Below the pieces are notes generated by a model. That model searched no databases and was not told where the DNA came from. It saw nothing but the letters and a program-made list of their open reading frames with translations. Positions 7,101 to 10,100 of a stretch of DNA of 64,000 nt are shown piece by piece. The position numbers and the translations under genes are program-made. Position 1 is the first letter of the stretch. Each line of letters starts with the position of its first letter. The stretch spans positions 1 to 64,000 of the forward strand of contig JAAILG010001434.1 of the NCBI GenBank assembly GCA_012026655.1, given 5' to 3'. The DNA is from Hydrolagus affinis. Its lineage: Eukaryota.

Positions 7101-10100
7101 GCACCTACAAGGTATCAGCAAGTTCGGGCAGCATTTGGGAGCGAGCATTGCGGATTAGACAGCAGGTTTATTTAAATAGCTATGCTTCAAGTAGATGATT
7201 AGCTCTGTTATAGGCTAACAGCATGCCATGCATAAAAGCAATTCATTTTAAAGGCTATTTAAACATGCTACCAATGGATGATGATTCTGCTGGAATTCAA
7301 TATTACAAAGCAAGTGAACAATCTTTGGCAGAAGGTCAAAACCTACTTGCACTGAGGCTCATTAAGTGGTGTTAAAGAGCAAACCCCTCCATTTTGACAG
7401 TAGTAATCACAAAGGTTCACTTTCTGGTCACATCGATCACTTTTAAACCCCACTGTGCATCTGCAGAGTTATACAAGAACATAACCAGAATTAAAATGCT
7501 GAATACACCGCAGTGCAAATTTATTGACTCCTTTTCTAACCAGCCTTCTTTGAGAACAAGGATGATGAGATTAATGGAGAAACTACTTTAGCATCTATTG
7601 CTCAATCCTAATAAAACCAACAAATTGAAATGCTCTGGGAATGCAGTCAGACAATAATTAGTCTCAGAGGTAAACTTGCTTATAACTTTTCACTAAACAT
7701 GCTAATGTTATCAATTAAGGATACAGATGAGAAGAATAGATACTTGGATTGTGTTAATTGAAATAACCAGGCATGTTGGAAGCTATGAAATCGTTACATT
7801 ATTTTGCAAGTACAACATCTGGCTTTGATGACTTCAGATTAGAGAAGGGGAAAGATCAGCCATATTTTCCACCTAATTACTATCAACTGATTTTTCCTGC
7901 AAGGTGTGCATGTCTGGAGATCAGCAATGCCCTCACAGATGAATAGCCTGTTGACGCTCACTGTCTGGGCTCAGCTATGAAGGATAATGAGTTGGTGAGA
8001 TAATGGGTGGCTGCATACAAAACTGCTCGCTGTACTAAGGTCACTGCATTCTGAAGAGGAGGTAGAAAGCAGGTTTTGTTTTACAAAAATCAAGTTATAA
8101 AACTAAACTCACATTTGCAAACAACGTTAACACATAACAATCCCTTTCAGCAACTTTCAGATTCTATAAATCAACCATTTAGGACTTGAAGAGGCTAAAA
8201 CCATTTCATTGATTATAAACACACACACAGACTAACACAGACAATTACTGTCATAGACTTTGAATTGAGAAAATAGTGTGAACCCAATTCTTCTATGCGT
8301 CAACACTGCATTTTAATTTGTACACATTTTTTCAATTTCTGGGAAGAAGAGGCTAATTTAAAATATATATATAATTTGTCTGCTTGATCATAGAGATGTG
8401 TAGCTCATTCAGCACCCATTCTTTCCATGTCTTTTAAATTACTTTTAAGCTTTGTTCCTTGTACCAGAGACCCCGTGTTAATGAACCAATTTCCTATTTA
8501 AATATAAATCAAAAGGATTACTGTCAGTAAAGAGATAAAATTCCCACATCATTCTTCACCAACTTTTCTCTCTCAAATGAAACATTTAGAAAAAAATTGG
8601 AAAACTCTAGAACAGTGAAAATAGTGTCATTGCTTAACATTCATTGCCGCACTCATTACTGCACTCCTAAATACTGGAGTAAACACCATTGGAGCCTTTT
8701 TATATGAGACGATAAGAGCAACATCAACATGCATTATATAACACAATTCACACAGGATGGCGTCTTGGAGTGCTTCTATATAATAATAATAATCCTTGCA
8801 TGTGATTTTGCGTTTTATCACGTTATCGAGGCATCTCATACAGGATACACAGTAAAGTGTAGTGACTGTATTTTGTTAGCGAAATATGTGAGGAGATATA
8901 AATGAGAGCTGGCGAGGATTTTGCCAAGACTGCATTGGGCTCCATATCTGAAATCTGGCTCTGTTTTCCTTTCAGATCTTTCTTGTTTACTTGTCCCAAT
9001 CCACTAAATCCTATCATAAATGTTTGCTGCAAGCATCCTTGTCCTACTAGGCACTGCCTGCACTTCTCTGTAACAACACAATTGATAATAGCAATTATTT
9101 TCTCAATTTTGGGCACATTACTAGCTAAAATGCCATTCAATTAGCTGCTTTTTGCTTATTACGGTTCATCCATTTTACTCCCTAGATTTTCCTGTAATAT
9201 ATGTTGCTGCCCACCATGCTGCTTATTTCTTTCAACTTTCCTGTTGTACAGTTAAACATAAAACAAGGTGTACATGCTGTTGACATTGCCGAAAAGATAT
9301 TTTCAGTCGGGTAATTTATTTTGCTGGACAAAGCACTTTGGAAGTGTTTCCATACAGCAAACAAGCCAACAATAAACTGAAATGTTTGCCTTTTGGTTAA
9401 AAAAAATCTGGTCAGCGTTATTGACGATGCAAGACAATAAGAGGAAATCACATCAGTGGCCAACATCAAGCCAAAAGCAATCCATGTGATGCTAAGCAGA
9501 ACTGTTACTCAAATAAAGTTTTAAAAATAGCCTAAACTTTAACCACTTTCCCACCATTTTCCTCAAATCTCTCTCCAAAAACACATTGTGGGAAGGGAGA
9601 CACGCACACACTCACAGACACAAATAGCCATAGACGCGCACACATATAGAAGAGACAGACAGACATATTCACAATCATAGAATCATAGAATCTTACGGCA
9701 CAAAAGGAGGCCATTTGTGCAAACCCGTCCTCCCCAAATAATTGTCTATCTCTCTTTTAAAAAAGTACCTACAGAATAGAAAGAGACACAGACACAATCA
9801 CATAGACACTCACAAACACACAAACACATAGTGAGAGAAAGAGACACACAGGCACACTCACACAGACATTCACAAATGCATGCAGAGGAGAGAGACACAC
9901 ACAGACACTCCCAACAGCGGGGTCCCCAAGTGGAGCGAAGCCAATTTCCCGCCCACAGTTGCATTGGATAAACAGTGCGAGAGATACTGGCTCCAGAAAT
10001 ATCATTTTTTTGTGGGTTTACAGCGGAGAGCGCTGTTCATAGCAGATTCCATGGAAATATTGTGCTGCACTTTTCTGTTGGCCCAGGTCATATATAACCC

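Follow-up and report, generated by a model that had tools for sequence, protein, structure and literature searches.

A putative ancient cassette exon for an extra stalk EGF repeat in an LRP1B-lineage receptor gene of Hydrolagus affinis

The locus and its stalk exons

The window, a stretch of 64,000 nucleotides of Hydrolagus affinis DNA (contig JAAILG010001434.1), carries part of an LRP1-family receptor gene on its minus strand. Its match to a Mobula 'LRP1-like' model comprises 23 loci and covers residues 3484-4569, about the 3′ quarter. Table 1 gives an overview of the features of the gene, with the exons of the stalk lettered A to F.

Table 1. Position of receptor gene features in the window
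Feature	Position	Strand	Description
Host gene, 3′ quarter	4001..59217	minus	End of ligand-binding cluster IV, EGF/YWTD region, stalk, membrane span, tail
Exon A	22233..22397	minus	Stalk EGF repeats 1-2; by local alignment the window exon closest to exon E
Exon B	17294..17455	minus	Stalk EGF repeats 2-3
Exon C	16609..16783	minus	175 nt; phase 2 end, after Cys4 of fifth stalk EGF; upstream partner of D, E or F
Exon D	13439..13543	minus	105 nt, phase 2-2; EGF-straddling, with a canonical donor and a GG acceptor in place of AG
Exon E	7347..7460	minus	114 nt, phase 2-2; Cys5-Cys6 of preceding EGF and Cys1-Cys4 of next
Downstream intronic motif cluster	7226..7284	minus	GCATG at 7268, 7231, 7226 (one full TGCATG); YCAY at 7284, 7281, 7277
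Exon F	6959..7035	minus	77 nt; Cys5-Cys6 of last EGF and short juxtamembrane linker
Transmembrane exon	5389..5479	minus	
First cytoplasmic exon	5031..5178	minus	Proximal NPxY motif
Last coding exon	4001..4141	minus	Distal NPxY motif and stop codon

Between exons C and F the minus strand was scanned, and exon E was the sole EGF-patterned candidate with AG/GT borders. It is preceded by a pyrimidine tract and CAG, is followed by GTAGGT and encodes a stop-free peptide, so that it has splice sites of its own and preserves the frame. The sequence-only reading had described a clean 114-nt, phase 2-2 exon with canonical splice sites between exons D and F; splice dinucleotides, phases, peptide and placement were all verified. 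Because its residues match those of a Mobula model (34/37 identical), a mouse model (26/37) and a lamprey model (24/37), exon E is not a chance frame. PF00008 matched it with an E-value of 0.0058 and 17.3 bits against a cut-off of 21.5, the exon comprising two part-domains and no whole one. The EGF repeat which begins in exon E and is finished by exon F has six cysteines with a spacing of 3-5-9-1-8, the same as in stalk repeats 1-4.

The boundaries of exons C, D, E and F all separate Cys4 from Cys5 of an EGF repeat, and therefore inclusion or skipping of exon E means that exactly one whole repeat is gained or lost. Indeed, the combinations C-D-E-F, C-D-F, C-E-F and C-F can all be read to the normal stop and give 7, 6, 6 and 5 complete six-cysteine EGF repeats, respectively, with no spare cysteine. 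The earlier proposal that either exon D or exon E completes the preceding EGF in frame thus holds, as all four splice forms consist of whole repeats. For LRP1 and LRP1B six membrane-proximal EGFs are given in a review (PMC8469001).

When the exon E peptide was compared to proteins of 73-2000 residues, a size range outside which full-length receptors fall, one candidate and no match was obtained. No solved LRP1 or LRP1B stalk was found in the PDB, where exon C had 16 matches, all of them Notch or generic EGF, and the ESM Atlas gave generic EGF clusters only. A single-sequence fold (P0021) had a mean pLDDT of 41.7 and was not used.

Further observations were made outside the stalk exons. The presumed furin site at about 32275-32290 (minus strand) reads KRKR and lacks arginine at P4, and R-x-K/R-R is missing from this stretch in all five elasmobranch models tested as well as in coelacanth LRP1B. 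Very high-copy interspersed repeats, which are abundant in RNA runs, are located at about 6430-6720, 8780-8880, 13030-13170, 14430-14730, 18980-19190 and 21100-21300. Near 6640-6700 there is a SINE-like copy with a head that looks tRNA-like by eye.

Identity of the host gene

The window exons show 79% identity to shark and ray 'LRP1-like' models, 59-62% to LRP1 and 55-57% to LRP1B. An ML tree of 18 rows and 1060 columns placed the window gene as sister to three elasmobranch models (100/100) and this common clade as sister to bony-vertebrate LRP1B (100/100), with the cyclostomes as outgroup. The stem of bony-vertebrate LRP1B is long (0.54). In all seven segments taken along the full proteins the shark and ray models grouped with LRP1B with a support of 1.0. 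A mosaic LRP1/LRP1B gene was rejected, as the seven segments give one and the same grouping.

Cluster IV of the shark and ray clade comprises 11 LDLa repeats, and Mobula and Hemiscyllium show a gap of 40 residues that LRP1 and cyclostomes share. Between 50443 and 48959 the window has no exon matching a twelfth LDLa repeat, which is specific for cluster IV of LRP1B according to PMC8469001 and PMC5331069. Since this repeat is missing, the host is filed here as LRP1B-lineage and not as LRP1B. The name LRP1B chosen in the sequence-only reading thus stands for the lineage, which is sister to bony-vertebrate LRP1B, but not for the extra LDLa repeat. The 33-residue cytoplasmic insert of human exon 90 was seen neither in the open frames from 5030 to 4142 (inspected by eye) nor in five elasmobranch tails; this insert is optional, and a coelacanth model is without it too. 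Teleost LRP1B has an optional, unrelated-looking insert at the site of the human one.

A separate shark LRP1B was found neither among the best 120 of 174 matches of one search nor among the 23 matches of a second search. The simpler reading, which we hold to be likely, is that the host gene is the LRP1B orthologue and that the bony-vertebrate gene changed later. Alternatively, it may represent a third LRP1 paralogue with reciprocal loss.

Distribution, conservation and splicing of exon E

A homologue of exon E is present at the same place in 101 of 281 labelled LRP1-family models, which were collected by two further searches and three cluster listings and are not independent, many being isoforms of one gene. 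One search contributed the best 120 of 174 matches, and samples of 15 were drawn from clusters with as many as 888 members. A cluster-representative search with exon C as query returned a salmon fragment in which D, E and F follow each other. The scoring of D, E and F comprised 251 rows; 26 rows without an exon C anchor were dropped, and lamprey and teleost LRP1, on which the exon D pattern fails, were read by eye. LRP1B-classed rows showed D, E and F in 67 cases, D and F in 78 and E and F without D in none, while 28 were incomplete or misassigned.

Database models with exon E are found for sturgeon, gar, teleosts, frogs, axolotl, turtle, snake and birds. The exon is also present in 10 of 15 lamprey models, which supports the earlier view that it is ancestral, while it is found in none of 30 models of jawed-vertebrate LRP1 and in none of five hagfish models. 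According to the simplest reading exon E would predate the split of LRP1 and LRP1B and would have been lost from LRP1; its lack in the hagfish models then needs a second loss or an annotation gap.

Of the 26 mammalian models, 23 of which reach exon F, seven contain exon E (jaguarundi, donkey, possum, mouse, beluga, sloth and platypus). None of five primate LRP1B models contains it, and two of these, NP_061027.2 and isoform X3, are human, so that the exon is indeed absent from the human LRP1B proteins retrieved, as the sequence-only reading had stated. In the curated NP_061027.2 exon D is joined straight to exon F. These primate models would agree with the further suggestion that an ancestral exon E was retained in fishes and lost in mammals, which is nevertheless scarcely credible in view of the seven other species. 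Loss in mammals as a whole was rejected for this reason. For the primates, a loss confined to this group or an annotation gap may account for the five models. Human LRP1B has 91 exons, of which exon 90 is optional (PMC3119793). Counted back from the last exon, exon E would be located between human exons 86 and 87. A predicted short human LRP1B transcript is drawn in the supplement of the same paper and may bear on the human status of exon E.

Conservation was compared in 17 E-containing models, one per lineage. The mean pairwise identity was 79% for exon E, 77% for the nearly as conserved exon D, 75% for F, 68% for A, 67% for B and 63% for C. Of the window residues, 24/37 in exon E, 13/34 in exon D and 22/57 in exon C are kept in lamprey. 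No difference within exon E was among those listed for runs X1 and X6; less than one change was expected, so this was not used as evidence.

The intron downstream of exon E contains three GCATG motifs within 125 nt, compared to 0-1 within 200 nt downstream of the other 22 scored exons. Sliding 200-nt windows with at least three GCATG were found in 8 of 2791 cases, all downstream of exon E, and this is the only such cluster in 56 kb (P = 0.02 by local dinucleotide shuffle). Because six motif types had been looked at before it was chosen, the cluster is taken as a lead only. YCAY clusters, which are linked to NOVA, are represented in the same stretch. Rbfox proteins raise exon inclusion from downstream (U)GCAUG (PMC3575530), and human LRP1B mRNA occurs in brain, thyroid and skeletal muscle (PMC3119793). 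The region 7226-7284 is thus a candidate enhancer of the RBFOX/NOVA type.

Predicted isoforms with and without exon E occur side by side in eleven species (sea lamprey, Narcine, gar, sterlet, zebrafish, grass carp, Rhinichthys, Denticeps, axolotl, Ranitomeya and Engystomops). These pairs are automatic predictions and include no amniote; among the amniote models retrieved, no such pair came from one annotation source. Among 14 scored models of sharks and rays, seven have D and E, four E alone, one D alone and two neither, and the predicted isoforms of Narcine alone cover all four combinations. In Narcine isoform X9, also predicted, the frame is lost behind exon D and the usual membrane span and tail are missing, so that its product would be a soluble or altered receptor. 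On the coding exons, two single-cell RNA runs (X14, X15), both from a related organism, had almost no depth, and repeats dominated their joints; no exon joint was among the 15 listed of more than 10,000 joint rows. Run X15 had a depth of about 2 at 3000-4307 with the first mate on the plus strand, which fits the 3′ end of the minus-strand gene in the related organism.

We consider it probable that exon E is an ancient cassette exon, which provides an extra stalk EGF of an LRP1B-lineage receptor, and that its inclusion is promoted by RBFOX-type proteins in nerve or muscle. The term cassette had already been proposed from the sequence and is supported by the predicted pairs in eleven species. 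Mutual exclusion with exon D (13439-13543), proposed at the same time, would suit the similarity of the two exons in phase, length (105 vs. 114 nt) and EGF half-pattern. Nevertheless, it is highly improbable, as seven of the 14 shark and ray models and 67 models of bony vertebrates include both exons, and two models skip both. Furthermore, the intron between D and E spans about 6 kb and both exon lengths are multiples of three, therefore spacing and frame do not enforce exclusion. Mutual exclusion was rejected, with all four combinations predicted in one ray, Narcine. Exon E could also be constitutive throughout the LRP1B lineage, with annotation gaps in the models lacking it: its conservation is strong, its splice sites are canonical, and many E-less models come from pipelines that drop other exons too. 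This explanation is quite improbable, because it is at odds with the eleven same-species isoform pairs differing by exon E, with the direct D-F junction of curated human NP_061027.2 and with the six EGFs given in reviews (PMC8469001).

A different question is the role of exon D in Hydrolagus affinis. Its acceptor is GG, with a G at position 13545 of the minus strand, in contrast to the AG of the other 17 exons listed. Contigs of runs X1 and X6 from two other organisms show no difference to the window at 13544-13546 (exon D lies outside the coverage of runs X7 and X12), so that an assembly error was rejected. Within 400 nt upstream there is no in-frame, stop-free AG, and use of either of two in-frame AGs inside exon D would delete a cysteine. 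The contigs of X1 and X6 show four differences inside exon D, three of which change a residue; this is compatible with relaxed constraint, though n = 4 gives no statistical power. Six of the 14 shark and ray models skip exon D, four of them with E included, and every bony-vertebrate model that extends to exon F keeps exon D. Given its GG acceptor, exon D would be mostly skipped in Hydrolagus affinis and E may stand in for it. The main form is then likely C-E-F. Models of Scyliorhinus, Heterodontus, Chiloscyllium punctatum and Narcine predict this form too. All these points would also suit a constitutive exon E that has replaced an AG-less, skipped exon D in Hydrolagus affinis, resulting in a receptor with six stalk EGFs. 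We regard such a replacement as unlikely, since exon D retains its open frame, all six cysteines, a canonical donor and 28/34 identity to Mobula, no worse than exon C, and the four differences carry no statistical power. Replacement of exon D would be compatible with exon E being optional.

Possible function and relation to known systems

Exon E is real and deeply conserved, and it is likely optional and regulated. If it is spliced in or out in vivo, with RBFOX-type proteins probably promoting inclusion in nerve or muscle, the stalk would change from six to seven EGF repeats. Inclusion would add one small disulfide-bonded module and would place different residues at the end of the preceding repeat. 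The juxtamembrane linker encoded by exon F would be the same in both forms, so that an altered reach or a new binding surface appears likelier than a new cleavage site. The conservation of the non-cysteine residues of exon E (75%) would suit a binding surface no less than a spacer. LRP1B undergoes metalloprotease shedding followed by cleavage in the membrane (PMC8469001), and an optional membrane-proximal exon of ApoER2 and VLDLR alters proteolytic processing (PMC5331069). For both reasons an effect of exon E on shedding is possible.

All elements can be joined in a wider scheme, which as a whole we put forward as tentative and rather doubtful. The LRP1B stalk would contain an undescribed, RBFOX-driven and tissue-specific switch between six and seven EGFs that is older than the lamprey split and was lost in LRP1 and possibly in primates. 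Cartilaginous fishes would have gained a second optional EGF exon, the roles of D and E would have been swapped in Hydrolagus affinis by the change from AG to GG, and the host might be a third LRP1 paralogue from early genome doublings.

No published description of exon E or of the shark gene was found in a search that mostly did not cover subscription papers, and splicing databases may list the exon. Exon 90 is the only LRP1B splice event met in the literature searched. LRP1B is not mentioned in the supplements of PMC5740500, PMC13059442, PMC10287156, PMC13450315 and PMC10927551, and a term search of the main texts of PMC9935665, PMC9605692 and PMC5991768 gave nothing relevant. The sequence-only reading had tied novelty to exon E not being annotated already as a constitutive exon across vertebrates, human isoforms included; the exon is present in automatic annotations of many vertebrates but absent from both human LRP1B models retrieved. 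It is thus an overlooked feature, already present and uncommented in these annotations, and no new kind of system. LRP1B is a brain receptor whose gene is much mutated in cancer. Its usual six-repeat description omits exon E, and constructs are built on the human LRP1B reference without it. An optional seventh repeat that occurs from lamprey to mouse and is conserved at least like its neighbours points to a selected function.

The closest known counterparts are the shark and ray 'LRP1-like' RefSeq models (Mobula XP_062904698.1, Narcine XP_069791191.1 to XP_069791201.1, Chiloscyllium XP_043550026.1, Scyliorhinus XP_072350760.1), with which the window gene shares 79% identity, one clade (100/100), exon E (34/37) and 11 LDLa repeats in cluster IV. 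It branches outside the three elasmobranchs tested and has the GG acceptor at exon D. Bony-vertebrate LRP1B, the sister group, is represented with exon E by mouse XP_017174837.1, jaguarundi XP_040330903.1 and ptarmigan XP_048808618.1 and without it by human NP_061027.2. It has the same order of D, E and F and the same juxtamembrane and tail motifs, but differs from the window clade by the twelfth LDLa repeat and has an optional cytoplasmic insert that was not found in the window. Furthermore, all its models that reach exon F keep exon D, whereas 6 of 14 shark and ray models skip it.

Jawed-vertebrate LRP1 resembles the window gene in overall architecture, in the 11 repeats of cluster IV and in 59-62% identity, but has a different juxtamembrane linker and lacks exon E in all 30 models. 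The lamprey LRP1-like gene (Petromyzon XP_032807017.1 to XP_032807023.1) has a homologue of exon E at the corresponding site, with isoforms that include it and isoforms that lack it; unlike the window gene it has an LRP1-type tail and is an outgroup to LRP1 and LRP1B. The O-linked sugar domain of ApoER2 and VLDLR belongs to the same receptor family and is likewise encoded by an exon that is optional and membrane-proximal. That segment is Ser/Thr-rich, glycosylated and located directly at the membrane, whereas exon E encodes a disulfide-bonded EGF and leaves the linker unchanged. Thus, the ApoER2/VLDLR domain is a functional model for exon E and not a homologue.
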